DNA of 64,000 nt from Octopus vulgaris (taxonomy: Eukaryota), in the NCBI GenBank assembly GCA_951406725.2, contig OX597819.1, positions 310,001-374,000 on the forward strand, read 5' to 3'. Below, piece after piece: positions 2,437 through 54,971 of the stretch; the first letter of the stretch is position 1, and every line of letters begins with the position of its first letter. The position numbers were made by a program, and so were the translations under genes. The notes under the pieces are model-generated. The model was not told the origin of the DNA. It did not search any database and saw nothing but the letters and a program-made list of their open reading frames with translations.

Positions 2437-4275
2437 TCATCATCATCATCATCATCATCATCGTTTAACGTCCGTTCTCCATGCTAGCATGGGTTTGACG
2501 GTTTGACCAGGGATCTGGGAAGCCAGAAGGCTGCACCAGGCTCCAGTCTTATCTGGCAATGTTTCTACAGCTGGATTCCCTTCCTAATGCCAACCACTCC
2601 GTGAGTGTAGTGGGTGCTTTTTACGTGCCACCTGCACAGGTGCCAGGCGAGGCTGGCAACGGCCACGGTCGGATTGGTGTATTTTACGTGCCACCGGCAC
2701 GGAAGCCAGTCGAGGCGGCGCTGGCATCGGCCACGAGTCGGATAGTGCTTTTTACGTACCACCAGACCAGGTTCAATTCGATTTCGATTTCGCTTGCCCC
2801 AACATGTCTTCGCAAGCAAAGGGGGTTGGCATGGGTGCCTGTCGTCGGATGAGGTTCTATATCGACTTCGCTTGCCTCAACAGGTCTTTGTGTCCAAGGG
2901 AGGAAAGGCATGCATAAGTGGGCTGGGCTCACTTGTCCTGCCTGGTCTTCTCACGTACAGCATATTTCCAAAGGTCATTTCCTCAGTGAGGCCTAAAGTT
3001 TGAAGGTCGTGCTTCACCACCTCGTCCCAGGTTTTCCTGGGTCTACCTCTTCCACGGGTTCCCTCAACTGCTAGGGATTGGCACTTTCTCACACACCTAT
3101 CTTCATCCATTCTCGCCACATGACCATATCAGCGCAATCGTCTCTCTTGCACACCACAACTAATGCTTCTTAGGTACAACATTTCTCTCAAGGTACTAAC
3201 GCTTTGTCGAGTATGTACACTGCACTGACATTACACATCCATCGGAGCATACTGGCTTCATTCCTCACGAGCTTACGCATGTCCTCAGCAGTCACGGCTC
3301 ATGTTTCACTGCCATGTAGCATGGCTGTTCGTACACATGCATCATACAGTCTGCCTTTTACTCTGAGCGAGAGGCCTTTAGTCACCAGCAGAGATAAGAG
3401 CTCCCTAAACTTTGCCCAGGCTATTCTTATTCTAGCAGTTACACTTTCAGCGCACCCACCCCCACTACTGACTTCTAGTTTTTCCCCCTGGATAGTGACG
3501 GAAGTTGTTTTCTGCAGATTTTCGGGGGTCAATGCTCCCGAGCATCTGCCACATACAAAAACTATCTTCCCAGTTAGCCTACCTTTGAGATTGCTGCACC
3601 TCTTATGTGTCCATAGCTTACACTGGGTACATCTTATAGAGTTTCTACCTACACCTTTTCTACAGATCGAGCAGGGCCATCTTCCTGAAGACATTTGTGG
3701 ATTGTCTACCTTCCTACTTATTAGTACTTTGGTTTTAGCTAGGCCTCTAAGGCCCCTCGATTCTAAACCCTCCTTCCACACCTGGAACTTCTCCTCCAGT
3801 TCTGATAGTGACTCAGCAATTAGAGCAAGGTCGTCAGCATAGAGGAGCTCCCAGGGGCAACCTGTCTTGAATTCCTCCGTAATTGCCTGGAGGACTATGA
3901 TAAATAGGAGGGGGCTGAGTACTGAACCCTGGTGGACCCCAACCTCTACTTTGAATTCTTCTGTGTACATGTTGCCAACCCTAACCTTACTTACGGCATC
4001 TCTGTACATGGCTTGCACAGCCCTCACCAGCCATTCATCTATCCCTAGTTTCCTCATTGACCACCAGATGAGGGATCGGGGGACCCTATCAAAGGCTTTC
4101 TCCATGTTAACGAAAGCCAGGTACAGGGGCTTATCTTTGGCTAGGTATTTCTCCTGCAGCTGCCTTACCAGGAATATAGCATCGGTGGTACTTTTCCCTG
4201 GCACGAACCCAAACTGCATCTCATCTAAACTAACTCTCTCTCTCTCTAATTAGTTGGGCTATGACCCTCTCCGTA
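2437..4275 (-). mobile_element. Second, shorter and disrupted copy of the same RTE family
   Basis: ORFs 3299-4219 and 2877-3119 are nearly identical in protein to the 41581-44334 ORF; (GAT)n tail; small deletions and frameshifts. Confidence 0.93.
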
Positions 4276-4624
4276 TATATATGCATACGTGCACACACAC
4301 ACATACACAGTCAGATGGATGGATATTCATACTCATATACAATGGGCTTATATACAGTCTCCTCCATCAAGTAAATTTCAATCCTAGGGCAGTGGTCAAC
4401 CTGAAGTACATTACAATAGTTATGGTGTAAATATGGTAGATTAATGACCTCTTGAGCAGGAGTTCAAGTATTTTTGCATTCATTGTGTAAATGTTCTTCA
4501 ACATTGATTATATTTGCTTCCATCTATCCATCAACTACAAAATAAGCCTGATCACTTCTTTTTCGTGAGGGAGTGTTTAACAACAAGGATGCCTAGCTGT
4601 AAAAACTGATGCTCCAAGAAGGTA

Positions 4625-5502
4625 TGAGATGCATTCCAGAAGTTTTGAAACATCTTTTTTGGAAAATCAGTTATAATTGTTCTAAATTTGTGTAATTTTA
4701 ATATGTTATTACAATACATCTAATAAGCTGTTCTTTCAACTTTTGTTATTCTAGATTGAAGAAAATGGCTGTAATAGCATTTTGAACGCACCCAACAAAA
4801 CACTGCTTGTCACAGCTGACTAATTTGCAAAATGTTGTTGGTATGTGAACGCAATTTAGAAGCTCGTTATGCTGTAAAGTTTTGTGTTAAACTGTACAAA
4901 AATGCCACAAACTCTTATGAAATGCCCTAGATTGCTTATGGATTAACTTGTATGAATTGTGCCTGATTTTTGCAGGTAGAAAAGAACCAGGTAAAGTAAG
5001 TCCACTGGGAAGCTCAAAATGCTCCTCTTTTTCAGCAGTGAGGGCATCATCTATATCCACTGCATTCTCTCTGGCCAGATGGTCAACTAAAAGTACTTTG
5101 TGAAGATCTTCAGTGAGTGCAGGAAGAGATTTTGTCGCAAATGACCAGAGCTCTTCGACTTGGATTGATGGCACCTGCACCAGGACAATGCACCAATTCA
5201 CAACTCCATCCTGGTAATCAACTGCTTGACAGAGATGAGCATCAGAACTGTCCCTTACTCACCCAAGAGACCAAACCTTGCCCCCCAGAGACTTTTGGCT
5301 GTTCTCCAAGTTAAAAGAGAATTTCAGGGGTACTCATTTTGGAGACATTGAGAAGATGAAGGAGGCTATGGACATCTTCACTTAGAAGGACTTCCATGGG
5401 GCCTTTACTAAGTGGCCAGAATTTTACAATTGCATTGAAGTTAAGGGATCCTACTATCAGTTTACTACTGAAAAAGTCTCAAAACTTCTGGAATGCATCT
5501 TG
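4625..5502 (+). mobile_element. Internally deleted mariner transposon
   Basis: ~27-bp TIRs (tgagatgcattccagaagttttgaaac / gtctcaaaacttctggaatgcatcttg) flanked by TA; transposase remnants WHLHQDNAPIH and LAP.DFWLFSKLKE. Confidence 0.88.
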
Positions 5503-6259
5503 TATAATGCAAGTGTCCAAATTTCCAAACACTGTCCCTTTCCCATGCATATCTGATTTTCATTTATTTAATTTTATGATACTGAATCATTAAGAAAAGA
5601 AAAACAATTCCCATAACCCCTTTTTAGGGTCACTGAGACTGCTAGGGAAAAGAAAAGAAGTTAACCTCAGACTGGGGATCTGATCTGAATACTTGCAACA
5701 GAGTGTACTCTGCTAAAGACATATATCCCAGGACCAGCTGGGAGTGTACAACTCAGTGGCAACGAAGTGGACTCAGCAAAAGATATCCAAGGACCAGTTG
5801 AAGGTTTTAAACTGAGTGATAACAGAATGAATAACACTAGATATGCTTTCTGAGCCAGATGGTGGTGTTAAACTGGGTGAGAGATTAAATTTACCATCCA
5901 AGAAAACGGATGTAAAATAAATAGAAAATAGCTGAGTTTCATAAAATAATTTGACCAAAACTATTATTGTTTTTCAGAAAGATCAAATTTACATACATAA
6001 CAAAACTAAATATAAAAATATATAAATGTATTTCTCTGTTTTTATGCATGCAGTAATTCAAATACAAATATATTTTTAATTTTTTCAATTCATAAACTTA
6101 TAACCATTGTTCAAGATGTGATTTTTACACAAGACACTGCTACAGTGCAGAAATGTATGATATATCTGATGAAAATAAAATGTCATGAGATATTCTTTGT
6201 TCTGGTGAGAACATTAGTGTGAACATATTGTTTTTTTCCCTGCTTTCTGTTTATTTTAC

Positions 6260-7101
6260 TCAACTTTTCCATTTCTTAAGTACATCTAAAAAGCTATAGA
6301 AAGCTTTCATTTTTTCCTCATGCATTTTACGCATTTCCAGGCGGTCTTCTTCTTGTTGGCGTTTTTCTTCTTCTTTGTTTGCTTTAAGCCAGTTCAAAAT
6401 GTCCATAGTACTGCATTCTGAAGAACGCGGTCGTTTTGGCTTAAAGCGTCGAACCTTTTCTGTGGAACTCTCAAGAATTTCAGTTGCAGAGTTAGATGAT
6501 GTACTAGCCAAACTAATTGAAATCACATTTGATTGTCCAAGAATCTCTGAGATTTCATCATAGAAGCTACACTTTCGTTTTAATCCTGAGTTTCTATTAT
6601 ATTCTTCAACTTTTTTGAAAGAGAGTTTTAGTGATTTCCATTTGTTTTCACATTGACGAGCACTAATTTCAAACCCATACTCAAGCATTTTTTTAGAAAT
6701 TTCTTCCCAAAGATTCTTTTTTTTAATGTTAGGTTGCAAAAAAAGTTCATGATAATGCTTATAAAGTTCTATGAAGAGCCTTGTTGACTGTTCATTCCAT
6801 TGGTATGCATCTTTCTTGAAATCAGCTATATTGATGCCATTCTTTGATGTGAAAGAAGATTCTTCTGGAAGTTGGACAGACTCTGAAGCTATTGGGGTGC
6901 TGCCATTAGTTGTACTTCCAATACTAACTGTCGAAGGTGGATTAGACCAGACTGGAGGAAGAGGTAAAGCAGGAGAGGCAACATCTATTGGTGATGCAGA
7001 AGCTACTGAAATAGCTGGTTGGGTAACAGATGTTACAACAGGCACATCAGAGTTAATATCCTTTGCAGAATTCTTTATTGCTTTGACATCCTTTCCTCCA
7101 T
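6260..7101 (-). CDS. Terminal exon: Myb/SANT-like DNA-binding domain (Myb_DNA-bind_4/trihelix type) + coiled coil
   Basis: Acceptor ctttttcAG at 7103-7102; W(NEQSTRLFIELY)...LWEEISKKM...ARQCENKWKSLK...FYDEISEILG pattern; basic KVRRFKPKRPR; EEEKRQQEEDRLEMRKMHEEKM tail; 280 uninterrupted codons. Confidence 0.85.
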
Positions 7102-10100
7102 CTGAAAAAGTCAGCAAAATAATGCAACAATTATAGAAGACATTTTGTAAATCATCTGGCAATTTAGACAACTTCTAAATATTCCCAAAACCAACAATTT
7201 TTTTTCCCTAATTGTTTTCTGGAAAAACAGGTAATGTATCATCCAATTCTAAATAAATTTTTGGTGCTCAACAGTGGGTCCTTCATAGGGGTAGCCAGCA
7301 GCATCATAGGCCCCAGGGGAAATCAATGCACTGAGCCCAATAGTATTAATTTGACAGCAAAACAGAGCAAGACATGGATTAGATTTGAGTTCCTAAACCT
7401 ATGAAGCATCCAGGCAACTACCAAGTGTGCCTTAAGACAGTACTGGGGGCAGCTCAAAAGGGAGCTGCTATGTTGCTGCTCAAATAAAGAACACATTAGA
7501 TGGTGTTGTGTAAGATACTAGTAAAAATAGCAACAATAACTTTCCATGTACTAAAGTAATAATATTTGAATTTAGAGAAGCAAAAATGTTTAAATTATTG
7601 GTACCTATTTTTTGAGTGAATGCCATTACAAGACAAGATATAAATGTATATATGTGTTGGTCTTTCTGTTTCCATCTACCAAATCCACTCACAAGGCTTT
7701 AGTTGTCTTGGGCTACAGTAGAAGATACCTGCCCAAGATCAAGCAAGCTGCTTGATTACATGACCATACCTGCACTTGACAGCTGTGTCTGCATGCCTCA
7801 CAGTCATACCTGCATCTCACTGCCACATATGTGTACAGTCATACACACACATATATAAAAACACATATGCATATATACGGGCCCACACCCACACATACAT
7901 GTGTGCATGTGGGTGTCTGTAGGTGTGTTCTGTGTGTCTTTCTTTTACATTGTGCAATAAAAGTTTTCAAAATGTAGTATCTATGGTCAATACTAAAGAC
8001 AGAAAAGCAATATAGGTCTGGAATTACTTCCATAAAAGAATCTCTTCCCATGACATACACTTTCATCAATCAAAGTAATCAGAAGGAAGGGAGTGAAATG
8101 GTTGACCATATAAAAGGAAGGGCACACAACAATAATTACATGGTGCTGACATTTGCAAAAAATTACCCAAACTCTACACCATGTGGTCGACAGGTTAAGA
8201 AGGACCTCTCAGATTCCTGAAGGTGCACGATTCTCTCTCATGACAGCAGTAAACTGAGCATCTGGCCAAAGAAGGTACTGCTGGTGGTCCAGCTAGCAGG
8301 AGATAGCAAAGATCCAGAAAAGATATATATTAAACTACACCAACATCTATCCATCCACTTTTTCCTCCCAATTTTCCTGGACGCCTCACATCATACCCTA
8401 TCAGAAGCAACCCTCATTACATTTCATGGCCAGATTCCCAAGTGTGACCAACTGAGATTATGGACATTACCCAACCAACTCACTCATGGGTCCGCCCCTA
8501 TGTCTTGTGCCAACTGGCAGAATTTAAAGAATCTCTCTTGTGATTCCTTCCTATGACATTCGATTCACATGCTGGTAGTACAAGAGCTGTTGCATCTCAA
8601 CATCTCGACTCAAAATTAAGAGAATTATTAATCAATCAAGAAATAAAATGAACACAATGTTGAACATAGTATCTTAAATGAATAAATATTACTATAAATA
8701 TTACTATAATTACATGGGTAAATTCCTTACATCCTTCATTTGCTGAATGCCATCGTTCATCAGATTCTAACAGAACAAATACTGTATCATTAGGAAGAAG
8801 AGCAAAATAATCTTCATCATCTACATCAGTTCCATCAGCTTCCAAAACTAATCGAATATCTGTCCCAGTGGTTAACCCAAGTTTAAGTTTTCCTACAATA
8901 AAAGAGATCAATAAATAATATTAATTTTATCCTTAAGTAGAAGGCCAAAATTGTTAATGAATGCAAGAAGTATAAATGAAATGGAGTACAGCATATTACC
9001 GGGATTTCTCAACCACAAAGTCAAACTTTGAAAGAATGAAAATGAAATGTAAGAATAAGAGTAAATACTGCATGTTCTACAATTTTTGCAGTCACTTTCT
9101 TCATTCTGTGTTGTATCAACATTGTCATTTAGTTTATGGGATTTGATATATTTCAAAATGAAATCATATTCTTTGTCATGAGCTTCAGTGATGCTTCAAC
9201 AGGTTGCTGCTGTTGTTTAACCACAAAATCGATCAGAATTAGGATCAAAGGCTTTCCAATCAATAACATCTCTTTTTTTTCAGAAACTATATATATATGT
9301 ACACATTATCCAACATGTCCTTCACTTTTGGTTTTTAATGATAACATGTGATAAGAGGGGCATTTTGTTGTCATTTCTAGTAGGTGAACTAAATACTTAG
9401 AGGTTCCTTCATTGTTTTAATTGTGATCTATGCTGGCATAAGTTGGACTGTCTAGGAAGAGAATTTTCTGTCAGGACTATTTCCTTAGCAGAAAGTCTTC
9501 TCCATGTCCAAATGCATTCAAATGTATTAAATATAATTTTACACAAAAATATTTTATCCAATGCTGCTTAGTGTGACATTATTTATCTAATTTTAGTCTC
9601 ACCAAGCTTTACACACTTCAACAAATGTACCATATATGGTTTTGATAAGAATGATTTTTTACTGATTGAGCTGTGAATGACAGATTTGGCATTCATAGCT
9701 GAGAAAGTGGAATGACATAAACACATGTGTCCTATCAACCAATGACGCCATTCACTGTGCAGGAGGAGAATTTCTTCTTGTGTCTGTTTCCACAACAACA
9801 GATTTTCTTATATCCAAATGTACCGTAATATGTTAAATATGACTTCACACAAATGTCTTTACATGTATTTTGATACGATAACCATTGATTGTATTTTGAA
9901 GATTTCTTCAATATCTTTGGCTTTTATGGTTATCTTTCTTTTTGTTAACCAATATGACAGGGTCAATAGATTATATCTATATTTATCATGCAGCATCACC
10001 AAGGCTAGGTCTTAGCAAGACCCGGGTCCATCTTCACACAATATCAATATTGTTTCAAGAAATAATGTTTGTTGTACTTTCATTTTGTTCAAAGGTTTGG

Positions 10101-10582
10101 TGTGAAGAAAGGGGACTGTGTCCATGGTCCTCATAAATTTTGCAAGAAGTTGAAGTTTACATGACTGATATTCTTGATCAACTCATAGTTTGTGGTTGCA
10201 GGAATAAATTAACAAGAACAAAATTTTATTCTGAGGAAGAAGGACAAGTTTATGTAAATATTTAGCAAAGGAATTAATAAGAACCAATCTAAGATATTTT
10301 TTTAAAATTTGTGTTATAAATACAATAAAATCAGCTACTCTTATGTTTTCTAAGTTTGCAATTTTAACAATTAGAAATATGTAGTTATGTATTTTCACCT
10401 CAGATCTTGCTTAATTATTGATTTTATATTGTAATAAATTACTGAATACAAAACAATTACAAAAATATTTTACCCTTTAAAACTAAATCTTGCAGATTAC
10501 TTGCTACAACAGGTTTTTTCGTAGTTCTTTCGCTGTTCCATATTTTAAAGGCCTTGGCATTTTGGTTAGGAGTTTGGCTCAT
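6260..10582 (-). CDS. Spliced gene, 370 aa: CIDE-N domain (DFFA/ICAD-like) + Ser/Pro/Thr-rich linker + Myb/SANT-like (trihelix) DNA-binding domain + C-terminal coiled coil. Coding exons 10582-10474, 8892-8731, 7101-6260
   Basis: Exons of 109+162+842 = 1113 nt join in frame across two phase-1 GT-AG introns. An in-frame TGA lies upstream of the ATG. Translation MSQTPNQNAKAFKIWNSERTTKKPVVASNLQDLVLKG|KLKLGLTTGTDIRLVLEADGTDVDDEDYFALLPNDTVFVLLESDERW is a typical CIDE-N domain. AATAAA at 6250-6255 (minus) just after the stop. Confidence 0.85.
8731..8892 (-). CDS. Second coding exon of the CIDE-N gene (162 nt)
   Basis: Acceptor tttattgtAG, donor T|GTAAGG; LVLEADGTDVDDEDYFALLPNDTVFVLL is the CIDE-N signature (LVL..DGT.VD.E.YF..L..NT). 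Confidence 0.9.
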
Positions 10583-10614
10583 GTTTGAAGTAAAACACCT
10601 ACATCAAGCAACCT
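10474..10614 (-). CDS. First coding exon of the CIDE-N gene (32 nt of 5'UTR, ATG at 10582)
   Basis: Acceptor tttcAG at 10616-10615; donor G|GTAAAA at 10473; encodes FKIW..R..KK.VVAS.L..L..K, the CIDE-N N-terminal half. Not in the ORF track (too short). The acceptor implies a further upstream non-coding exon. Confidence 0.85.
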
Positions 10615-13503
10615 CTGAAAGACAAAGGAAACAAAAATTTAATATTTAACCCTTTTATTGACATTTCTAGTAGAGGTGCTCAAAACCAAGTTCTAAAGTT
10701 AGGTGGAGTGAGCACATAAAAGAAGGCGCCAAGACACATACCAAATAGTTTTTTTTACCCATTTCCCTTATATTATGTGAAATCTTTCATTAGTTATAAT
10801 ATACATAATTGTATTCTACATTCATTAATTTTATGATTCAGTAATAATGTCATTATATATGAAACTTACAACTACTAATATAGGTGTGATGTGAAAAAGA
10901 TGTAACTCTACAGGATTGTCCAGTGTTGAGAGGTTAAGACAACAGGGTTTGTTTTGGTTTTTCAGATGTCAGTAGCCACCAACACATCACAGGATATTGA
11001 GCAGATAGTTCAAAAACACAGGAGGTCAGTCAAATAAAGTAATGACTCTAGAAAGTACTTTGAAGGCCATGAAATTAACAAAAAAAAAGAGGATCAACTT
11101 TTATCACACAAGCGAATTAAAGAGGTAAAAACAATTGTTGAAAGGTCACCAATTTTGAAAAATGTACTCTTTTATTAGCTACACCAATGGAAAACAGATA
11201 TATCCACTAGGACTTTTATCATCCTAAACTGCAGAAAGTAGTTTTATATACCACTCCATTTTTGTTGAGGAACATCATGTTTGAAACTATTTTCTGTTGA
11301 GAATATGTAAAGTTTATTGAGGCAACATAACTTGCAGAAAATACCGATTCTATTTTTTGGTAGATATCTAACCTCATTGTTAGAGTCATCATCATCATCA
11401 TTTAACATCTGCTTTCCATGGGTTGGATGGTTTGACATGGAGTTGGCTAGCAGGGAGCTGTCCAGACTCCAGCTGGTATGGTTTCTATGACTGGATGCCC
11501 TTCCTAACACTTAACAGAGTGTGCTGGGAGCTTTTTTTATGTGCAACTGGCATGGGTGTGTGCATCCAGCACCTGAAAGGACAATCCTGTATGTGTAGAA
11601 GACAGTGATATTACTTAGCTTGATGTATCTTACCAAGGACAGCAAATCCCCACATCTCCCAGTCCCTTGTCATTTCTTCAATGAGGCCCAGTGTCTGAAG
11701 ATCCTTTCTCACCACTTCATCCCATGTCTTCCTGGGTCTACATTCCTTCCACAGATACCCTCCACAATTAGAGCTCGCACTTCTTTGTGCAGCTGTCCAC
11801 ATCCAAATGCATCACATGACCAAACCAGTGCAATCTTCTCTCTTACACATAACATCTGAATAACCATGAAATTTAATTCTTAAAGTAAAAAAGTTAAAAC
11901 ATTATCATTTTTTTTGTCCTCCACCCTTAATTTATTAGCTTACAACTATTTTTTCTTACTTAAATCACAAAAGAATATTAATAAATGATGATGGTTGTTG
12001 CTGGCGTTTGTTTTTGGAATACTTTCATCATCTTAGATTCAGTATTGTCTTTGGTCATCTTTAGGTGACACTCCTGAGCTGAGCTAGAGTCCTACCCTAC
12101 AATCTTCCTTTAATCCTTCAGCATTCAGATCAGTCTCTCAAGTGCAATGCTTATTTATTCAGGTTGTTTTCAATTATTCATACAATATTTCATACTTTCA
12201 AGATTTCAATGATGTGATTGTTTAGTTCTAGTATGATATTGTAGAGTAAGGTCAGACAGGCCAGATCTGGCCAGTTTGAGAATAAAACACGTACAATATT
12301 TTGGCTGGATATGGCCACTTTAAATATTAATGGATTAAATACTAGATCTTTTACTCTAACCGATCTAACAGCCAATCATTGTCAGAAACAGTGTTGTCAT
12401 TTTGATGTACAAAATATATACTCAAGTAATATTTGATCTTGCCAAAAAGTCAACCTAAAATTTATTAGGTCTGACTCAGCATATGAATAAAGTGAATCAT
12501 TACATACATGTTTTGGCAGCCTAACAGATCCAGAGACAGAGGAAAGAACTAAAGAAACATTTTAGTTACACCAGCCTTCTGGAATGTATCACTACATGTT
12601 ATTACTTAAAAATATTGGCCATGGTAATGATTTATTAATGTGGGTTTTATAGCACAACATGTGATGATGTGTATTACTATAAGTAAATTTCCATAAATCT
12701 TCATATTTTTGTTTTGCAATGATTTACACAAACTAGGCTTTTGCCAACAAAAATTACAATGCAAATTTAACACGAAATTCAATCCTAGGAAAAGAAGCAT
12801 CTACATGATAGTCAACCCTTTAAATTCAGCCTTAAAAAATGGTCTGCAAAACTCAACTTTTACTTGGGTATATACGGTATTTAAGCATTTGTCATAATAT
12901 TTGTTCAAATACTAACTCTTTGCCTTTTCCTTCAATTAATCATATGAAAGCATTACAGATGGGTTAAGTAACAGAGAAAAAGACTTAGTTTAAAAAAATT
13001 ACACATTTCACTCCCCACCATCTCTCCCCTTCCTCCTTCCCCCTTCAACTAATCGTGTGGAAACATTACGGATGGGTTAAGTAACAGTGGAACAAGCAGA
13101 ATTATTATAAGATACAAAAGGGTTAAGGTAATTGATGTTTAGTTTTGATAGTTGTAAACTGATTTCAGTAAAATAAATGTGGGGAGAGAAGCTCCCATAC
13201 CATATTGTCTTGCAGCAGGCTTCCATGGGAAATTTTATTGCATTAATACCCTCTGATAATCAGCATTTATATTTTAAGTTTGGTACTTATTCTATTGATC
13301 TCTTTTGCTAAACTGTGAAGTTATAAAGCAGCATTGGTTGTCAGGTGGTGGTGGTAGTGGGAGGTAAGCATACACACATACGACAGGCTTCCACACAATT
13401 TCTATCAACCAAATTGTTTCACAAGGCATTGGTCAGCCTGAAGCTATAGTAAAAGACACTAGTGCAAGGTGCCACACAGCAACACTGAACTTAAATCCAC
13501 ATT

Positions 13504-13848
13504 TAACACCCGTGGACATATTTACAAAGTCAGAAAACAGCACAGCTCCCATGACTTCAGGAAACATTTTTTCACGCTGAGAGTTGCTGAAGCATGGAAC
13601 AAACTGCCGGCATCAGTTGTTAGTTGTCGGAACACTGCATCCTTCAAAACTTCCATGCTTTCTGAGATTCGCCAACACTACACCTGATTTTCTCCCCTCC
13701 ATACACACACAAGCTTGTATCTGACTCATGCATTGTTCGCTTTCCAGACATTTGTACATTACTGCATATACTTTATACGCACTTTCTGACAAGTTGTGGT
13801 GCACCTGAGCACTGTATGCAATAACTTCATTATTATCATTATTATTAT
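13504..13848 (+). mobile_element. 3' fragment of the same CR1 family nested inside a SINE
   Basis: Matches the reverse complement of ~26040-26380; (ATT)n tail; SINE sequence resumes on both sides. Confidence 0.88.
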
Positions 13849-14276
13849 TTGCAAAGCAAGCATCTTAACCACACAAACATGCCTGCACACACACACACAC
13901 ATACATGTGTGTGTGTGAGTAAAAGGGATTACAGTCTGAGCTGTTATCATGAAGCATGTCTGCAAATCTCAAATCTCAGCTGTCAACTATTTGTAGATAT
14001 TTTATGTTTATGAAGAAAACTATTCATACAAGTTGAAATTCCTTGTCCAGTATATTAGCCACAGAGTATGTATATATTGAAACAAAGATTGGAATTTATG
14101 GTATTATTTTTAATTCTGTAGTTACAATTGTTTCATTACAACATGATAAATACATTTTATGGACATAAATGTTAATATTAATAATTATATGATTATAATG
14201 AATTTATAATATTATAATGCATAGACAGACATTATTTAGCACTTATGTGCAATTCATTAGACATACATACACACAA

Positions 14277-22730: not shown

Positions 22731-22839
22731 CATGGTAAAAATATATATATGTAAATTTTTATATATAACACTAAAACGATTTTTAAAAATGATACAAAAA
22801 ATGTTACTTAAAAAAATTACACAAAAAAAAATGGCCAGA

Positions 22840-23420
22840 TTTCTACGATAAAAAGTAAATTAAACGAACTAGTCGAGGAGAATGAAGCTCCAACCTTTAT
22901 AATCAGAATGAAGTAAAAGATATCTCGGTTTGGTGGAATCCAAAATTCCAGAACCGTGGAATCAGGTCGACAGGAATATACAGCTTTGGTTATAACTCCT
23001 TTATTCTTCTATTCAGTTACTTTTGTTACACTGGCAGGGAAAAACAGTTATTCCGTTGTAAGAAGACTAGGATAGCATGAACGAATCGCTTCTACTTGAA
23101 ATTCGCAATCGGCAGTAAGGAGTGGTAGTGGTAGAAGTATGTCTCATAGAAGTGGTTGCACTAACAAGCGGCAGTAGTATCAGTATGAATAACAATATTT
23201 TGAATGGATGTCGCTGTCGTTTTCTAACATTTTTCTGACTTTTGAAAATAAGAAATTGGGACATTTGATTGAAATTACAAAATATGCTTAGAAAATGCAA
23301 AAAAATCAAATCCTGATGAAATAACAAGTAATTTTTAATATAATTCGGTCGTGTTAATTTCCCATCTGACGACATGTTTGAATATACGAACGTTGCGTAT
23401 CGATGGAAGCTTTGTAATAA
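22840..23420. promoter_or_regulatory. Second CpG-retaining promoter-like segment, candidate TSS region of the CIDE-N gene
   Basis: Unique sequence with clustered CpGs (gtcgag, gtcgac, acgaatcgc, ttcggtcgtg, acgaacgttgcgtatcgat) between AT-rich flanks, upstream of the minus-strand gene. Confidence 0.4.
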
Positions 23421-26029: not shown

Positions 26030-29000
26030 TTGCTCATTATAATATTAATAATGAAATTATTGTATACAGTGCTCAGGTGCACCACAACTTGTCAGAAAGT
26101 GCATATAAAGTACATGCAGTAATGTAAAAGTGTCTGGAAAGCGAACAATGTATGAGTCAGATACATGCTTGTGTGTGTATGGAGGGGAGAAAATCAGGTG
26201 TAGTGTTGGCGAATCTCAGGAAGCATGGAAGTTTTGAAGGATGCAGTGCTCCGACAACTAACAACTGATGCCGGCAGTTTGTTCCATGCTTCAGCAACTC
26301 TCAGCGTGAAAAAATGTTTCCTGAAGTCATGGGAGCTGTGCTGTTTTCTGACTTTGTAAATATGTCCACGGGTGTTAGATGGGTGGAGTTTGAAAAGGTG
26401 CTCAGAGTTATTGTTTGTACGATGGTTGATAATTTTATGGGTGTCTGCCAAGTCAGCTGCCAGACATTGGAGTTTCAATGTGTCCATGCCCAGGGAAGTA
26501 AGGCGTTCAGGATATGGCAAATGCCTGATGGAGGGTATTCTTTTGGTTGCACGTCGCTGAACAGCTTCCAGACGATTGATATCCTGGGCAAAATAGGGGT
26601 TCCAGACCGGTGATGCAAATTCCAAATGAGGTTTTACCATAGCTATATAAAGCCGCAGATAGATAGCCGGAGAGCGGCTCACAAAGGACTTGGTGAGTGA
26701 TGCCAAACACCCTCAGCCTTCTTGACAATTTTAGCGATGTGTTTTGTCCAACGCAAATCACTGTCAACAATAACACCCAGGTCACGTTCACATGAAGACT
26801 TTTTGAGACTAGTGTTGTGGAGGGAGTAAGTAGACGCTGGGTTTCTCCTCCCAAAATGCATTTGTCCACAGCCAGCTTGAGTTGCCACTCCATGATCCAC
26901 TGCTGCATTGTGTCCAGGTCTGCTTGCAATAGAGATCTATAGTGTACAGGATCTGTCCTCTTTATTTCGAGGTACAGCTTGATGTCATCTGCATATTTCA
27001 GTACTGTGGCTTTCTTTAAGTTGGCATCTATGTCATTAACATATGCAACAAATAAAAGGGGGCCAAGAACAGATCCCTGTGTTACACCAGATGTCATCTC
27101 ATAGGGTGAAGAGTGCTGTCCTAGAACTGTGACAACCTCTTTTTGGCCGAAAATAAAGGACTTCAACCAGTTATAGAGATCATCTCTTAAACCCGATGCA
27201 GAGAGTTTCACCATAAGTCTTTTGTGTGGCACAGAGTTAAAAGCCTTAGCAAAGTCCAGGTAAACAACATCCACCCAGGATCCGCGATCAGTGATTTGGG
27301 TAACGTCCTCAAGAAACTCGATGAGTTGATTACGGCAGCTGGAGTTAGGAATAAATCTGAATTGTGACGGCTGGATGAGGCTGTGAGACTTCCAGAAGTT
27401 CCAGAGGGTTTCTCTGATACAGGATTCCATCAGTTTGGCGATGCAGCTAGTAAGACTGACGGGGCGATAGTTGACAGGCGATGTGCGGTCACCTTTTTTG
27501 AACAGAGGGATGACACTGGCAGTTTTCCACTGTTCTGGAGTAACACCATTGTCAAGACAGAATTGGAAGAATAGAAAAAGTTGGCTTAGAAGGAAGTACC
27601 CACCGCGTTTGAGAAGTAGGTATGTAACACCATCGAGACCAGGAGAGGCATAATTGCGTTTATTTTTAAGGTGGTGTTGCAGCATTGCTGGTGTAAATTG
27701 CATAGTAGATATAGAGTCCAATGTCAGTGGTGATGAAGATGGAACATTTTGGTCTTCGACAGTAAAGATGCTGGCATAGCATCCAGCAATGATTTCTGCA
27801 CATTCTTCGGGATTGCCAGAAATCTGTCCTGTGTGGGGATTGCGAAGGGGACCAACAGGAGAGTGGGGTCTCTGCTTTGAGTGCACATACTTCCAGAACA
27901 CTTTGCTGTCAGGGTTAGCTGCAATGCGTTGTTCAAATTCAAGCACTGCCTTTTTTGTCACCTGCTTGAGGTGGTTGGCTGACCTATTGCGCTTTTTCCT
28001 GTTGCTCTCTGATTTGTGCAATTTGTATTCCTGTTCAGCATTACGGCGTTCTTTCCTGGCAAGTAGGACTGCTACAGTCTCCCAAATTGCACTATTGGGT
28101 GGTTTTTTGTGCTTGCGTGGTACTGATGCTGCACATGCTGCCCATATTGAATTCAGAATGTTCTGGAGTATAGTGTCCACATCTCCAGAGGCATAAAATT
28201 TGTGCCAGTTTGGGCGTTGCAGCTCAGTACAATAAGAGCTCCAGTTTGCTTTATTCCAGTCAAAGCGGGCAGTCTGAAGATGGTTGTGTTTTTTGTTACA
28301 ACCAATCAGAGACAAGTCGGCCATGATCATGGAATGATCAGAGTCACCTAAAGGTTCTTCGGTAGTGACACTAATGATTGTTTCAGGAGAAGCGGTAAGT
28401 AGCAGATCCAAAGTGTTGTTACCACTTGTGGGGGAGGTAACAACTTGGGACCAATTTGAATTCAGCACCAGTTCAAGGAAATCGTCTGCACTTTGCGGCC
28501 AACGGAAGGCCTCCCAGTCAATCTCAGGGAAATTGAAGTTGCCCGCAATATACACATATGTGGCTGTTTTCATGGCAGCAGCTCTGAGGATATCAAAAAG
28601 CTGTGCGTCTTGGCGATAATTTGGGGGACGGCAAACGACTCTGAGCAGAAGTGTTGACATGGTCATGTGTATATTGCAGAAAAATACCTCCTGCTGAGAT
28701 TGGTTCAAATCATCACAGGGGATTGCCGATAGATTTGATCGAACATAATTCATCACACCCCCTCCACGGCGATTAATGCGGTCTTTGCGGAACAGGTTGT
28801 AGCCGGCTATGCTGAAAACTCCATCACAGAGTGCAGAGTGTGCCCATGTTTCCGTGACTGTGATGAAATCTGGGTTGATACTTTTGACGTAGGAGACAAA
28901 AAGATGCACCTTGTTGCATAAACTACGGGCATTCAAGGACAGCAGTTTATATCTGGATTTCAGATGATGATATACAGGGGATGGCTGATTGTTCTTGGTT

Positions 29001-29542
29001 AGTTTCCCAAGATTTTTGCATTGCCAGTTGTTGTTGTGGGTGTAGTCTGCTCAGTCCAACTGGCATCCCTTATCCACGACTCACCAGACTTGACAAATTT
29101 CCAGATCTGCCCATCATCGCAGAGGCTAAAACTCTCCTGTGGCACAGAGTTGCGATTTAGGGAAGCTACATATCTTAGCTTTGGGCGTACATCGGGTGGT
29201 AGGCCAGGACGTGTTCTAAAGTTGATAATGTTGTCATGCCGAGCTCTATCAGCAGCCAGATGGAATGTCCCCGCCTCAGTAGAGCCCATAAACAACAGCC
29301 TGATCAGCCTGGGTTTGGATCCCGGTCGGCCAAGGTGGGAAGCACTTTTTGGAGGGACACAGCTGAGATCCCTAGCTGTGTTTCCAATGAATGCCTGCAG
29401 ATCTACCACATCTTCCGGCACTCCGATGGCTATTAATTCATGAGTGGCTGGTTCAGCAACTCCCTCAATGTGTTGAGGTTCTGTACAAGCTACAGGTAAG
29501 TTGCTGTGCAGGGCACTCCGATATGACCCTTCGCTGTGAGTT
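26030..29542 (-). mobile_element. Near full-length CR1-clade LINE (ORF1 + frameshifted APE-RT ORF2)
   Basis: ORF1-like 28999-29421 (LGRPGSKPRLIRLLF); ORF2 NARSL..VTETW..GNFNFP, YLDFAKAFNSV, GVTQGSVLGPLLF, YADD, CR1-type tail FFTLRVAEAWNKLP; AT-rich 3' tail at ~26035. Confidence 0.92.
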
Positions 29543-40977: not shown

Positions 40978-43900
40978 ATCATCATCATCATTTAGCGTCC
41001 GTTTTCCATGCTAGCATGGGTTGGACGGTTCTGCTGGGGTCTGTGAAGCCTGAAGGCTTCATCAGGCCCAGTCAAATCTGGCAGTGTTTCTACGGCTGGA
41101 TGCCCTTCCTAACGCCAACCACTCCGTGAGTGTAGTGGGTGCTTTTTACGTGCCACCCGCACTGGTGCCAGCCAGAGCTGGCAAACGGCCACGAACGGAT
41201 GGTGTTTTTTATGTGCCACCGGCACGAGGGCCAGGCGAGGCTGGCAACGAACACGAAACGGGGCGGTGCTGGCAACGGTCGCGAAACGGAAGGTTCTCTT
41301 ACATGCCACCGGCACTGGTAACACATCTGCAATTTCCATTGATCGATTTCCATTGATCGATTTCGATTCTGATCCTCACTTGCCTCAATGGGTCTTCACA
41401 AGCAGAGTTTCGACATGCCACCGGCACTGGTAGCACATCCGCAATTTCCATTGATCGATTTCGATTCTGATCCTCACTTGCCTCAACACGTCTTCACAAG
41501 TAGAGTTTTGTGTCCCAAGAAGGGAAGGTATGCATACGTAGGCTGGCTCCATCCCATGTAGAAGGCCACGGGTTGTGGACTCACTTGTCCTGCCGGGTCT
41601 TCTCGCGCACAGCACACTTCCAGAGGTCTCGGTCTCTAGTCATTTCCTCGGTGAGACCTAAAGTTCGAAGGTCGTGCTTCACCACCTCGTCCCAGGTTTT
41701 CCTGGGTCTGCCTCTTCCACAGGTTCCCTCAACCGCTAGGGTGTGGCACTTTTTCACACAACTATCTTCATCCATTCTCGCCACATGACCATACCAGCGC
41801 AAACGTCTCTCTTGCACACCACAACTGATGCTTCTTAGGTCCAGCTTTTCTCTCAAGGTACTTACACTCTGCCGAGTGTGAGTACTGGCATTACACATCC
41901 ATCGGAGCATACTGGCTTCATTTCTAGCGAGCTTACGCATATCCTCAGCAGTCACGGCCCATGTTTCACTGCCATGTAGCATGGCTGTTCGTACACACGC
42001 ATCATACAGTCTGCCTTTCACTCTGTGCGAGAGGCCTTTTGTCACCAGCAGAGGTAAGAGCTCTCTGAACTTTGCCCAAGCTATTCTTACTCTAGCAGTT
42101 ACACTTTCAGCACACCCGCCCCCGCTGCTGACTTGGTCACCTAGGTAACGGAAACTATCAACTATTTCTAGTTTTTCTCCCTGGAAAGTGACAGAAGTTG
42201 GTCTCAGAGCATTTTCAGTGTTTATTGTTCCTGAGCATCTGCCACATACAAAAACCATCTTCCTAGTTAGCCTTCCTTTGACATTGCTGCATCTCTTATG
42301 TGTCCATAGCTTACACTTGGTGCATCTTATAGAGTTTCTACCTACACCTTTTCTACAGATCGAGCAGGGCCATCTACCTGAAGGTGTTTGTGATTTGTCT
42401 ACCTTCCTACTGATTACGACTTTGGTTTTAGCTAGATTGACTCTGAGGCCCTTCGATTCTAATCCTTGTTTCCACACCTGAAACTTCTCCTCCAGTTCTG
42501 ATAGCGACTCAGCAATTAGAGCAAGGTCATCAGCATAGAGGAGCTCCCAAGGGCATCCTGTCTTGAATTCCTCCGTTATTGCCTGGAGGACTATGATAAA
42601 TAGGAGGGGGCTGAGTACTGAGCCTTGGTGGACCCCTACCTCTACCCGGAATTCTTCACTGTACTCATTTCCAACCCTCACCCTACTAGCGGCGTCCCTA
42701 TACATGGCCCGCACAGCTCTCACTAACCATTCATCTATCCCTAGTTTTCTCATTGCCCACCAGATAAGGGATCGGGGGACCCTGTCGAAGGCTTTCTCCA
42801 TGTCAACAAAAGCCAGGTACAGGGGCTTATCTTTGGCTAGGTATTTCTCCTGCAGCTGCCTTACCAGGAATATAGCATCAGTAGTACTTTTCCCTGGCAC
42901 AAACCCAAACTGCATCTCATCTAAACTAACTCTCTCTCTAATTAGTTGGGCTATGACCCTCTCCGTAACCTTCATCACCTGGTCCAACAGCTTGATACCT
43001 CTGTAGTTGTTTGTATCTAGGGCATCACCTTTACCTTTGTAGCAGTTGACTATTATACTGCTACACCAGTCATTGGGTATGACCCCTTTGTGTATCACCT
43101 GATTAACTATATGGGTGACTAGGCTATAGCCGACACTACCAGACATTTTGAGCATCTCTGCAGTGATTCCTGATGGGCCTGGGGCTTTCCCTGTCTTCAT
43201 GCTTCTAATTGCCTTAGCTACCACAGAACTATCAACTCGGATAGCTGGTCCCTCTGTTGGGTCAACATTCGGCAGACTCTCTTTATCCCATTCATTTTCT
43301 TCATTCAGCAACCTTTCATAGTGGCATCTCCAAACCTCTCTCTTTGCATCCTCATTTAGCGCAAGTGAACCATCTTCCATGCGAACACACTTCTCTCCTA
43401 CCACATCACGATTCTCTCTCACACACTGTCTTGCAACACGAAACACCTCCAGTCTTTGGTCCTCACGGCGCAGAACATTGGCAAATTTTTTCTTATCTGC
43501 TTCCCCTCTGGCTAAATAAACCTGTCTCCTAGCTTCTCTTTTGGCAGTCTGATACAATTCCCTGCTACCCCCATTTTTCCAGACCTTCCAAGCCTGTCTC
43601 TTTTCTCTAATAGCCCTGTCTACAATATTGTTCCACCACCACGTTATTCTAGGTCGAGAGGGGACTTTGCACCAGCCACAGATCTGGTCAGTGGCTCTCA
43701 GCAGGTTGTCCCTTAGAAACGTCCAGCTGTCTTCTACCCCCTGTGATGCTCTATCCCCTTCTACTTCGTCAGAGGCTTCAAGTAATATGTCCCTAAATCT
43801 CTGTCCATTTGCAGGATCTTTAAGCTTCCAGATCCTTCTTCTCCATATTTGTCGTCTTCTGGTTGTCCTCCTAGTCCTGATCCTAAAGTCACTAACTACC

Positions 43901-44380
43901 AGTCTATGTTGTGGGGTACATTCTTCACCTGGGAAGGTTTTGGCATTTATAAGCAGCCATCTCTCCCTTTGCCTTGTAAGGATGTAGTCAATTTGGCTGG
44001 TATGTTGGCCCGATTGGTAAGTGACTAGGTGGCTGGTAGGTTTCCTGAAGTTAGTGTTGCAAATCATAAGATTATTTGCATCGCAGAACTCCAGCAGCCT
44101 GGTTCCCTCCTCGTTGCGGGAGCCATAGCCGTAGCCTCCATGTACGCCATGGAAGCCCCCAGCATGTCGTCCAACGTGACCATTGAAGTCACCAGCCACA
44201 AAGATAAGGTCTCTGTCGTTCGTCAATGAGGTAGTCTGCAGTAGAGTGTCATAGAATCGGTCTTTCTGTCCATCGGGTAGCCCCGACTGAGGAGCATAGG
44301 CTGATATAATGGTTGCTAAACTATGATGAAGCACTAATCTAATCTTAAGTATTCTGTCACTTACTCTGATTACCTCAATT

Positions 44381-44385
<5 letters not shown>
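40978..44385 (-). mobile_element. Young 5'-truncated RTE-clade LINE
   Basis: Open 917-aa APE+RT frame (GDFNGHVG, QFGF, YADD), RGRPRKTW C-terminus, long 3'UTR with (GAT)n tail at ~40978; the 5' end abuts a (TA)n tract. Confidence 0.95.
41581..44334 (-). CDS. RTE ORF: partial AP endonuclease, reverse transcriptase, PHD-like Cys/His finger
   Basis: ORF track 917 aa with no stops; SQIDYIL endonuclease motif, LAFVDMEKAFDRV, GVHQGSVLSPLLF, LLYADD. Confidence 0.93.
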   Translation of the reverse strand: MLHHSLATIISAYAPQSGLPDGQKDRFYDTLLQTTSLTNDRDLIFVAGDFNGHVGRHAGGFHGVHGGYGYGSRNEEGTRLLEFCDANNLMICNTNFRKPTSHLVTYQSGQHTSQIDYILTRQRERWLLINAKTFPGEECTPQHRLVVSDFRIRTRRTTRRRQIWRRRIWKLKDPANGQRFRDILLEASDEVEGDRASQGVEDSWTFLRDNLLRATDQICGWCKVPSRPRITWWWNNIVDRAIREKRQAWKVWKNGGSRELYQTAKREARRQVYLARGEADKKKFANVLRREDQRLEVFRVARQCVRENRDVVGEKCVRMEDGSLALNEDAKREVWRCHYERLLNEENEWDKESLPNVDPTEGPAIRVDSSVVAKAIRSMKTGKAPGPSGITAEMLKMSGSVGYSLVTHIVNQVIHKGVIPNDWCSSIIVNCYKGKGDALDTNNYRGIKLLDQVMKVTERVIAQLIRERVSLDEMQFGFVPGKSTTDAIFLVRQLQEKYLAKDKPLYLAFVDMEKAFDRVPRSLIWWAMRKLGIDEWLVRAVRAMYRDAASRVRVGNEYSEEFRVEVGVHQGSVLSPLLFIIVLQAITEEFKTGCPWELLYADDLALIAESLSELEEKFQVWKQGLESKGLRVNLAKTKVVISRKVDKSQTPSGRWPCSICRKGVGRNSIRCTKCKLWTHKRCSNVKGRLTRKMVFVCGRCSGTINTENALRPTSVTFQGEKLEIVDSFRYLGDQVSSGGGCAESVTARVRIAWAKFRELLPLLVTKGLSHRVKGRLYDACVRTAMLHGSETWAVTAEDMRKLARNEASMLRWMCNASTHTRQSVSTLREKLDLRSISCGVQERRLRWYGHVARMDEDSCVKKCHTLAVEGTCGRGRPRKTWDEVVKHDLRTLGLTEEMTRDRDLWKCAVREKTRQDK

Positions 44386-44437
<52 letters not shown>

Positions 44438-52859: not shown

Positions 52860-52959
52860 NNNNNNNNNNNNNNNNNNNNNNNNNNNNNNNNNNNNNNNNN
52901 NNNNNNNNNNNNNNNNNNNNNNNNNNNNNNNNNNNNNNNNNNNNNNNNNNNNNNNNNNN
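52860..52959. other. Assembly gap (100 N, true size unknown)
   Basis: Run of N. Confidence 1.
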
Positions 52960-53136: not shown

Positions 53137-53952
53137 GAGAGCAGCTCACAAAGGACTTGGTGAGTGATGCCAAAACACCCTCAGCCTTCTTGGCAATTTT
53201 AGCGATGTGTTTTGTCCAACGCAAATCACTGTCAACAGTAACACCCAGGTCACGTTCACATGAAGACTTTTTGAGACTAGTGTTGTGGAGGGAGTAAGTA
53301 GACGCTGGGTTTCTCCTCACAAAATCCATTTGTCCACAGCCAGCTTCAGTTGCCACTCCATGATCCACTGCTGCATTGTGTCCAGGTCTGCTTGCAATAG
53401 AGATCTATCGTGTACAGGGTCTGTCCTCTTTATTTCGAGGTACAACTTGATGTCATCTGCATATTTCAGTACTGTGGCTTTCTTTAAGTTGGCATCTATG
53501 TCATTAACATATGCAACAAATAAAAGGGGGCCAAGAACAGATCCCTGTGGTACACCAGATGTCATCTCATAGGGCGAAGAGTGCTGTCCTAGAACTGTGA
53601 CAACCTCTTTTCGGACGATAATGAAGGACTTCAACCAGTTATAGAGATCATCTCTTACACCCATTGCAGTGAGTTTCACCATAAGTCTTTTGTGTGGAAC
53701 AGAATTAAAAGCCTTTGCAAAGTCTAGGTAAACAACATCCACCCAGGATCTGCGATCAGTGATTCGGGTAATGTCCTCAAGAAACACGATGAGTTGATTA
53801 CTGCAGCTGGAGTTAGGAATAAATCCAAATTGTGATGGGTGGATGTCGCTGTGAGACTTCCAGAAGTTCCAGAGGGTTTCTCTGACACAGGGTTCCATCA
53901 GTTTGGCGATGCAGCTAGTAAGACTAATGGGGCGATAGTTGACAGGCGATGT
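53137..53952 (-). mobile_element. Internal RT fragment of the same CR1 family
   Basis: ORFs 53317-53994 and 53111-53368 are nearly identical to the 26680-27490 region. Confidence 0.9.
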
Positions 53953-54971
53953 TTGTTTAGATATCTCCCTAAGAGAAGGAAACTTTGTATCCAATGATGT
54001 AGACTACTTCTTTTGGGGCAAATGCATACATTACTTAGAGAATGGGATATATACATGCACACATACATACTCTCATACGCACATTTGTATGCATGCATGT
54101 GTATATATGTATGTATATGTGTACACACACACACACACACACACACACATTCACACACACACACACACGTTGTGGAACCAGGTTTCCAGGTGATTTCTGT
54201 AAGGCTTGAGTAATTGTATAGTTTCTGGAGAATGGTGAAAGAATGAATGAGATTTATGAGGCTGTCTATGTTTTGTGGAAGTGTGGTAAGGTCATGTAGA
54301 CATAGGTTGGAAAATGTGGGTGAAAGAATGAAAATCCTGTAGGACTTTATTCTGGCAATTGCCATTTCTGAAGTGTAATTCTTATCCATTACAAAGGTCT
54401 GGGAATCTGATGGATAGTTTGATAGTCAGCATTTTGTGTTATTTTTTGTATGAGTGGATAGCAAGGAATGGAGTTGAAACTATCGTTGCTGATGTCAATA
54501 ATAGTTACAGTAACATATGTGGGACTTGTTGTTTTGTTACTGGAGTCATCATGTAATTTCTGTGATAGGTTTGTGGTCGTATGGTGGTCAAATGAAACCA
54601 CGTTATGAAATGGAGTACAAGATATATGGGATAGAAATGTCAAGGTTTAGTCTTTGAATTTTTGAATGTGTGTGCATAGGAGGCTGATGGGTCTGCATCA
54701 TGTTAATTCACTTATACTTTTGTTTACCTTTTGAATTTTTGTAGTTTTATTCAGTTTCCAGATTCTGGGAATTTGACAATTTTACTTCTAGTAGTTGTAG
54801 ATGATGAATGCATTGATTTCCTTAAGCCTAAAGTGTTTAGGTATTTCTCTTTGATTTTGTTTGGTTTTAAAGCTTTTGAATTTTTAGATATCCCTTTTGC
54901 TAATTTTGGGTGGCTTATGGAAGAAAGGGGGCAAAATTATATCTCTATAGTGTTTTAATACAAGTTTTTGG

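Follow-up and report, generated by a model that had tools for sequence, protein, structure and literature searches.

An octopus gene that joins DFFA-type CIDE-N exons to a Harbinger-type Myb/SANT exon, and a dead transposase kept in a DFFA intron

In a 64,000-nucleotide (nt) stretch of the Octopus vulgaris genome (contig OX597819.1, positions 310,001 to 374,000; hereafter the window), we analyzed a minus-strand gene of three exons whose 370-amino-acid (aa) product carries a CIDE-N domain, known from cell-death proteins, followed by a Myb/SANT trihelix domain. Exons 1 and 2 of this fusion gene are of DFFA type, and exon 3 is, judging by its sequence, of the type of the second open reading frame (ORF2) of Harbinger transposons. 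An intact paralogue of DFFA harbours a dead Harbinger transposase in its intron 2, on the antisense strand, and this transposase is conserved across the species that have the fusion gene. Considering these findings together, we lean toward the view that the fusion protein is a chromatin regulator that oligomerises, binds DNA and works as a pair with the dead transposase, and that the two genes were born from one Harbinger insertion in DFFA intron 2.

Structure, splicing and domain layout of the fusion gene

The features of the gene are as follows (window coordinates):

10583..10614, minus strand: part of the 5' untranslated region (UTR) in coding exon 1; acceptor AG at 10616-10615; in-frame stop 7 codons 5' of the ATG
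10474..10582, minus strand: coding exon 1; residues 1-36, first half of CIDE-N with basic-face residues K13, K23 and K36; ends in phase 1
8731..8892, minus strand: coding exon 2; residues 37-90, second half of CIDE-N with K40 and acidic-face residues D56, D59, D61, D62 and D64; ends in phase 1
7102..8730, minus strand: intron 2; GT..AG, phase 1; boundary between DFFA-derived and transposon-derived sequence
6260..7101, minus strand: last coding exon; residues 91-370; occurs once in the genome
6839..7101, minus strand: Ser/Pro/Thr-rich linker; residues 91-178; fast-evolving, without DxxD
6542..6802, minus strand: Myb/SANT trihelix (PF13837); residues 191-277; relatives are Harbinger ORF2 and plant GT-1
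6425..6457, minus strand: basic patch; residues 306-316; candidate nuclear localisation signal
6266..6409, minus strand: C-terminal helix; residues 322-369; matches the C-terminal helix of Harbinger ORF2 proteins
5968..6259, minus strand: 3' UTR, as far as the RNA-type contigs extend (ends at 5968, 6034 and 6104)

The three exons (10582-10474, 109 nt; 8892-8731, 162 nt; 7101-6260, 842 nt) form a coding sequence of 1113 nt with zero internal stops, and both introns are GT..AG in phase 1, exactly as the initial annotation, made from the sequence alone, had described. The in-frame stop upstream of the ATG falls within the transcribed exon, and a further 149-265 nt of 5' UTR lie outside 4400-14200. 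A CpG-richer stretch lies at window 22800-23250 and may be a candidate promoter and first untranslated exon of the gene. The translation is identical, letter for letter, to the database protein CAI9723676.1 (P0001 in our collection), named 'DNA fragmentation factor subunit alpha-like [Octopus vulgaris]'; a gene model was thus already on file.

Four of 24 listed sequencing runs were aligned to the locus. Three of them (X1, X2 and X6, from studies P1, P2 and P3) are presumed RNA by a guessed label, and the evidence for splicing consists of their intron-free contigs themselves: in all three runs one contig spans 10616-10473, 8891-8731 and 7101 to about 6000 with consecutive record coordinates. 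Because single contigs cross the exons in this way, both junctions (10474/8892 and 8731/7101) are real. The fourth run, X18, judged genomic from its size and cover, yielded an unspliced contig over 8565-10818, through intron 1 and into intron 2. A strong in-frame phase-1 acceptor within exon 3, at window position 6951 (minus strand), precedes the Myb domain by 49 codons and may represent an alternative splice site or an older one; its use was not seen in the RNA-type contig pieces displayed.

Pfam assigned residues 10-85 of the whole protein to CIDE-N (PF02017; E 4.7e-25) and residues 191-277 to Myb (E 2e-19). Exon by exon, CIDE-N was split over exons 1 and 2 (E 4.6e-5 and 2.2e-15) and Myb_DNA-bind_4 fell in exon 3 (E 1.2e-19). 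An AlphaFold model built on 4 sequences was poor overall, with a mean predicted local distance difference test (pLDDT) of 44, and predicted a continuous helix at residues 322-369 (pLDDT 64-81 in blocks). With the basic patch at 306-316, the order of CIDE-N, linker, Myb/SANT domain, patch and long helix agrees with the layout first proposed.

The fusion gene is a paralogue of DFFA

Four CIDE-N loci were found in the genome: the fusion gene, DFFB on C16 (with DFF40 exons 35 kb further on) and, on C6, two DFFA-type genes at 28.0 and 34.9 Mb, both complete with four exons and showing intron phases 1-1-0:

C6:27974441-27981484, minus strand: DFFA-type gene, ~203 aa
C6:34914131-34928984, minus strand: DFFA-type gene, ~193 aa; 64/186 residues identical to the other

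The first two junctions of both genes sit at the positions seen in the fusion gene, both in phase 1, and the phases of vertebrate Dffa are 1-1-0-1-0 (PMC2426694). These two shared phase-1 junctions uphold the DFFA origin of exons 1 and 2 that the initial annotation had suggested by comparison with human DFFA. Exon 2 is 159 nt long in both octopus DFFA genes, compared to 162 nt in the fusion gene. The DFFA-type label of the octopus genes rests on tblastn to cuttlefish and chiton DFFA (E 1.7e-4 and 7e-5), on exon layout and on the tree, where the two cluster, which suggests a duplication within octopods. A caspase-type DxxD motif directly follows CIDE-N in 9/9 DFFA-type proteins checked, on exon 3 in both octopus genes. 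By contrast, it was present in 0/8 fusion-type rows; the DxxD motifs of the fusion protein are confined to CIDE-N and the linker has zero, as had been noted at the outset. Pfam detected no DFF-C (PF09033) in P0001, and a search of the 184 kb around the fusion gene with a DFFA C-terminal profile gave a best score of 4.3 bits. A DFF-C family search of the whole genome returned no match, but neither did its control, and the octopus DFFA C-terminal exons alone also gave no Pfam DFF-C match.

Because two complete DFFA-type genes and DFFB lie elsewhere, and no DFF-C-type exon was found within 184 kb, we conclude that the fusion gene is a separate paralogue, neither the DFFA gene nor its isoform; the initial description as a 'DFFA-locus gene or isoform' has to be abandoned. 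In the trees, the CIDE-N of the fusion proteins formed a well-supported clade of its own, and the parent DFFA was not indicated. Two candidates were rejected: an alternative DFF-C-type 3' end of the window gene, none having been found in the 184 kb, and a second CIDE-N-Myb fusion at the 34.9-Mb locus, which is a complete DFFA without a Myb remnant.

The terminal exon resembles Harbinger ORF2

Our transposon set consisted of the best 80 of 461 confirmed metagenome loci carrying relatives of the C6 transposase described below, and the Myb profile used on these loci was built from the cephalopod exon alone. A Myb frame was found in 16 of the 80 (many contigs are too short for one, and several are near-duplicates), and in 16/16 loci having both genes it was encoded on the other strand, downstream of the transposase. 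Five of these 16 loci, and 5 further ones, also showed the C-terminal helix. Among 8 loci checked for inverted repeats, L157, L158 and L160, which belong to a single family, are 4.2-kb elements with terminal repeats of 31-35 bp (35-bp inverted repeats in L157), and their transposases retain D, D and E; 3-bp target duplications are present in L158 and L160 and absent in L157 and L137. Fusion residues 191-367 align continuously to L157 ORF2 (29% identity, E 7e-19). This alignment and the 16 Myb-bearing loci support the PIF/Harbinger second-ORF origin that had been put forward for the Myb exon. The splice-acceptor phase of transposon Myb exons was mixed and uninformative. As expected of a domesticated ORF2, the fusion gene combines a Myb/SANT trihelix and a C-terminal helix with single copy, no terminal repeats among the 25 longest of 109 inverted pairs, and conservation across species; the marks of an active Harbinger element, namely multiple copies, terminal inverted repeats and an adjacent DDE transposase, are absent from the locus.

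A dead transposase in intron 2 of DFFA

A search of the 2.8-Gb genome for the Harbinger transposase domain gave 12 matches, one of which lies inside the 34.9-Mb DFFA gene:

C6:34916531-34921655, plus strand: C6 transposase (L056/L046); two exons, 407 codons; antisense inside DFFA intron 2
C6:34925248-34915334, minus strand: intron 2 of the 34.9-Mb DFFA, which hosts the transposase gene

This intron is the equivalent of the one where the fusion gene leaves DFFA sequence. Since the transposase is on the plus strand within intron 2 of a minus-strand DFFA, and ORF2 is convergent with it, the Myb gene of such an element would stand on the DFFA strand right behind exon 2. All three catalytic positions are replaced in 5/5 cephalopod copies checked, and despite the lost catalytic triad the transposase is 267/406 identical between octopus and cuttlefish. 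Its close relatives are 65-99% identical, and outside this group identity falls suddenly to <=42%. Database records of other cephalopods place the genes near one another: in cuttlefish, a contig of 3,537,254 bp is given for the N-terminal part of the fusion (CAE1322973), for DFFA (CAE1322975) and for the transposase (CAE1322978), and in Argonauta GAB1598371 (DFFA) and GAB1598372 (transposase) are consecutive records.

Two more transposase-derived genes with altered catalytic motifs were observed, L047 on C25 and L048 on C11. The C25 transposase grouped with elements L172 and L207 in quick trees, as did a C26 Myb, and the two are possibly a second co-domesticated pair.

Conservation, copy number and range

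Full-length two-domain orthologues were found in O. sinensis, O. bimaculoides and Argonauta hians, and in records P0003, P0004 and P0009 (cuttlefish-type). P0009 equals the named cuttlefish model CAE1322973 throughout CIDE-N and linker. Compared with P0001, it is identical at 66/76 positions of CIDE-N, 28/88 of the linker, 97/104 of the Myb region and 44/51 of the C-terminal helix, a domain-wise conservation that indicates strong purifying selection. The octopus DFFAs share just 65/186 and 62/197 residues with the cuttlefish-type DFFA P0055 (31-35%); by these comparisons the fusion gene is much more constrained than DFFA. Among at least 8 exon-3 differences displayed from run contigs, 4 are silent and 4 are replacements, all of the latter within the linker. 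The fusion gene is at least as old as the octopod-decapodiform split, which is dated to either the Late Carboniferous or the Permian (PMC5360930).

Searched against the whole genome, exon 3 had one DNA match, itself, and the next protein match was 27% identical. This result dispels the concern, raised in the initial annotation, that the Myb exon might be a multicopy transposon ORF. Other Myb_DNA-bind_4 matches numbered 43 (150 scored of 448 candidates) and comprised four other host-like genes plus an unrelated repeat frame in several copies. Of 109 inverted pairs, the 25 longest were examined, and exon 3 lies within none of them. Further single-copy Myb/SANT genes are L067:6591-7871 (minus strand, C3), L069:5815-7851 (plus strand, C20) and L017/L018 (C26). 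L020-L044 are a multicopy repeat whose first frame encodes a Myb-like domain and then Cys/His-rich motifs, one copy continuing into reverse-transcriptase-like sequence.

A profile search for the architecture among 1.84 billion representative proteins gave 2284 matches at E <= 0.001, of which the best 150 were listed. CIDE-N and Myb occurred together in 7 of 159 collected proteins, every one of the fusion orthologue group. Since a second two-domain family would sum both scores and rank near the top, the CIDE-N and Myb/SANT architecture looks restricted to coleoids from the listed matches, Nautilus not having been checked directly. The initial annotation had called the architecture unfamiliar, and indeed no second two-domain family appeared among the best 150 matches and none was found in the searched literature. 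Elsewhere, P0077 combines CIDE-N with C2H2 zinc fingers and P0061 combines zf-CW with CIDE-N, which hints that CIDE-N has been joined to chromatin domains repeatedly.

Proposed origin and mechanism

We propose that, before the octopod-decapodiform split, a Harbinger element inserted in DFFA so that its Myb gene came to stand immediately after exon 2 and on the same strand as DFFA, that exon 2 was then spliced into Myb, and that a local duplication parted the fusion (exons 1-2 and Myb) from DFFA and the transposase. This sequence of insertion, splicing and local duplication before the split is, in our estimate, probable. By analogy with HARBI1-NAIF1, ALP1-ALP2 and HDP1-HDP2, the trihelix would bind DNA, and the C-terminal helix would bind the dead transposase and bring it to the nucleus as a scaffold, not a nuclease. 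HDP1 and HDP2 pair via the C-terminus of the Myb protein, in a histone acetyltransferase complex (PMC5339849). The pairing of HARBI1-NAIF1 and ALP1-ALP2 is covered in PMC9710019 and PMC9392472, the former of which also describes co-domesticated insect pairs that later separated. A complex prediction for the transposase (P0162, residues 55-407) and fusion residues 305-370, run without alignments, scored 0.00 and gave no answer; it weighs neither way on binding.

CIDE domains polymerise head to tail via a basic and an acidic face (PMC8647176; PMC5730196), and the DREP3 filament interface comprises K122, K132, K145, K149, D162, D165, D167, D168 and E170 (PMC8647176). When these positions were mapped onto the fusion protein by spacing and a gap-free DREP2 alignment, 9/9 equivalents retained charge in all 7 orthologues covering them. 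The opposite basic and acidic faces that characterize filament-forming CIDE domains (Drep2/3/4, DFF40) are thus present at the sequence level. By analogy with the Drep2 and Drep3 structures, head-to-tail CIDE-N oligomers would raise DNA avidity, and, without the caspase site and DFF-C, the fusion protein would be neither released by caspases nor a chaperone of DFFB. We favour the chromatin-regulator reading because of the known Harbinger pairs and because the charged CIDE-N faces are kept in every covering orthologue.

Several observations weigh against this account. The fusion gene (C6:0.32 Mb) is 34.6 Mb from the transposase-hosting DFFA (C6:34.9 Mb) in this assembly, the Argonauta fusion is on another scaffold (48.4 vs 34.5 Mb), and the cuttlefish linkage consists of database records (the listed contig and accession numbers), not DNA. 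Neither a Myb remnant within intron 2 of DFFA nor a transposase remnant near the fusion gene was found. The CIDE-N and whole-DFFA trees place the fusion CIDE-N with neither octopus DFFA, and the Myb and transposase trees (L158 omitted as a duplicate of L157) fail to pair this Myb with this transposase. Rival candidates exist in the genome, namely a Myb gene of the same subfamily on C3 and the transposase-derived genes on C11 and C25. Finally, the named cuttlefish model CAE1322973 diverges after the linker and misses the Myb part (13/104 identical).

A rival account is a separate origin, in which a previously domesticated Myb/SANT gene, or one from another insertion, received a duplicated DFFA front by shuffling. 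The product would then be a stand-alone transcription factor using CIDE-N only for oligomerising, and the transposase would pair with another Myb, for example that on C3. The distance between the loci here and in Argonauta and the trees, which indicate neither parentage nor pairing, agree with such an origin; in addition, other Myb/SANT genes of the genome likewise start their Myb exon at a predicted phase-1 acceptor, and the C3 Myb scores equal to that of the fusion against the transposon ORF2 set. However, two coincidences would be needed: a transposase, one of only 12 matches in 2.8 Gb, would have to lie exactly in DFFA intron 2 and in the predicted orientation, and the cuttlefish records of fusion, DFFA and transposase would have to be near-consecutive by chance. 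We consider a separate origin rather unlikely.

Another alternative retains the single-insertion origin and places the main role in apoptotic DNA fragmentation, with the acidic face of CIDE-N binding the basic face of DFFB/CAD. The protein would be a caspase-proof filament cap or, as the initial annotation had imagined, a tether of the nuclease at DNA sites read by Myb. A DFFB gene is present in the genome, the acidic face is invariant, and acidic faces of DREP1 and DREP3 bind basic faces of DREP2 and DREP4 (PMC5730196, portion consulted). The missing DxxD also fits, and the strongly diverged octopus DFFAs could leave room for a substitute. Yet two complete DFFA-type genes persist, the fusion has no DFF-C region, and the basic face is equally invariant, which fits self-assembly. 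Moreover, the C-terminal helix of Harbinger type has been retained, and the dead but conserved transposase could serve as its partner; the presence of that transposase in DFFA intron 2 favours co-domestication of a pair over a tether of CAD. We therefore judge a main role in DNA fragmentation to be unlikely.

The chromatin-regulator reading and a contact with the apoptotic nuclease are partly compatible, because an intact CIDE-N may also bind DFFB or DFFA. A CIDE-domain transcription factor that arose in the common ancestor of living octopuses, squid and cuttlefish and forms a head-to-tail polymer along DNA sites read by Myb, loading the dead transposase at its tail and DFFB at its head, is a speculative and improbable combination; if true, it would place or restrain DNA cutting in the cephalopod genome in a sequence-guided, caspase-independent manner. 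That a piece of DFFA and a transposon frame were merely joined in frame by chance, making the gene an artefact or a passenger without function, is highly improbable and largely refuted by splicing (contigs free of introns from three studies, against a genomic contig that is unspliced), single copy and domain-wise conservation across octopods and cuttlefish, even though the RNA label of the runs is guessed and the named cuttlefish model lacks the Myb part.

Assembly gaps and neighbouring genes

Scaffold gaps are present at window 52860-52959, preceded by a 25-bp tandem repeat, and at C6:34933606-34933705, followed by a ~50-kb inverted duplication; the second sits 4.6 kb upstream of the ATG of the 34.9-Mb DFFA. 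The block between the two gaps may be misplaced or flipped. When a scaffolding flip was examined as an explanation of the 34.6-Mb separation, no join of contig ends was found among the matches listed, and no 5' exons of an interrupted plus-strand gene were found in the window or in C6:34.68-35.19 Mb. Exons of that gene lie at window 61684-61857 and C6:402238-402550 (plus strand); they resemble PEX14, an identity that Pfam, PDB and Atlas did not confirm. An RNF34/RFFL-type exon is found at C6:34990147 (plus strand). Exons of PGD (6-phosphogluconate dehydrogenase) occupy C6:35008307-35027224 (minus strand), 80-100 kb from the 34.9-Mb DFFA and beyond the scaffold gap, which recalls the human gene order PGD-APITD1-CORT-DFFA-PEX14 (PMC554762). 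The window also contains retrotransposon reverse transcriptase frames of the long interspersed element (LINE) type, all on the minus strand, at 41581-44436, 26507-29050, 3299-4249 and 53317-54003, one of them 951 aa without a stop.

Comparison with known systems

If our reading is correct, the fusion gene offers a well-preserved record of gene birth, in which one transposon appears to have donated both genes to the host: one took over the first exons of a cell-death gene, and its partner is still in the landing intron. CIDE-N, from a family known from apoptosis, lipid droplets and synapses, would have gained a new role as an oligomerisation module on a DNA-binding protein. Because the gene is at least as old as the octopod-decapodiform split and under much stronger constraint than DFFA, it can be put to the test as a candidate regulator specific to cephalopods, and the database names that call its product DFFA-like need correcting. 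No publication on the gene or on CIDE-N with Myb/SANT was found in a search that left supplements and most subscription journals outside; PMC10027918 excludes MADF-type genes and has no mention of CIDE, and PMC9068888 is likewise silent on the architecture.

As in DFFA/ICAD/DFF45 and fly Drep1, CIDE-N is encoded by exons 1 and 2 with two phase-1 introns and has both charged faces. Unlike DFFA, the fusion protein has a DNA-binding exon in place of DFF-C and of the DxxD after CIDE-N, and its gene is a paralogue beside two intact DFFA-type genes. The CIDEA/B/C and Drep2/Drep3 proteins also consist of a duplicated DFFA CIDE-N given a new C-terminus (PMC2426694), with filament-forming CIDE domains (PMC8647176). 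Their C-termini, however, act on lipid droplets or at synapses, not on DNA, and the fusion protein has no CIDE-C.

On the transposon side, the fusion gene resembles the HARBI1-NAIF1, ALP1-ALP2, HDP1-HDP2 and insect PLG-PM pairs in its ORF2-derived Myb/SANT domain and C-terminal helix, its single copy and its conservation, and the cephalopod transposase lacks the DDE triad, as does HDP1 (PMC5339849). In contrast to those pairs, its Myb is joined to a host cell-death domain in an independent, cephalopod-limited event, and the pairing here is a predicted one. Vertebrate MSANTD1-4 differ from it in that they are described with a Myb-like domain alone in the portions seen of PMC9710019 and PMC9392472. 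The closest solved structure for the Myb domain is the trihelix of GT-1 (2JMW, E 3.5e-11), a plant protein with another domain order and without CIDE-N. An Atlas search returned only Myb clusters, all scoring <0.9, among them a GT-1-like cluster that adds a ubiquitin-like domain (score 0.76, a lead only).

Host-transposase fusions such as KRABINER (Cosby et al., bioRxiv 10.1101/2020.05.07.082677) arose when a transposon landed in a host gene, host exons were spliced to its exon for DNA binding, and the product was fixed, and the fusion gene is like them in these respects. It departs from them in what was captured, the helper ORF2 of Harbinger instead of a domain of the transposase, and in the host contribution, CIDE-N; the main text of that article has no mention of Harbinger, PIF, Myb or CIDE. 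Both the splicing of host exons to a transposon exon and the co-domestication of Harbinger pairs are thus routes already known. What is new, as far as the literature searched extends, is the CIDE-N and Myb/SANT architecture, a cell-death gene having captured ORF2 and not the transposase, and the keeping of the partner in what appears to be the original intron.

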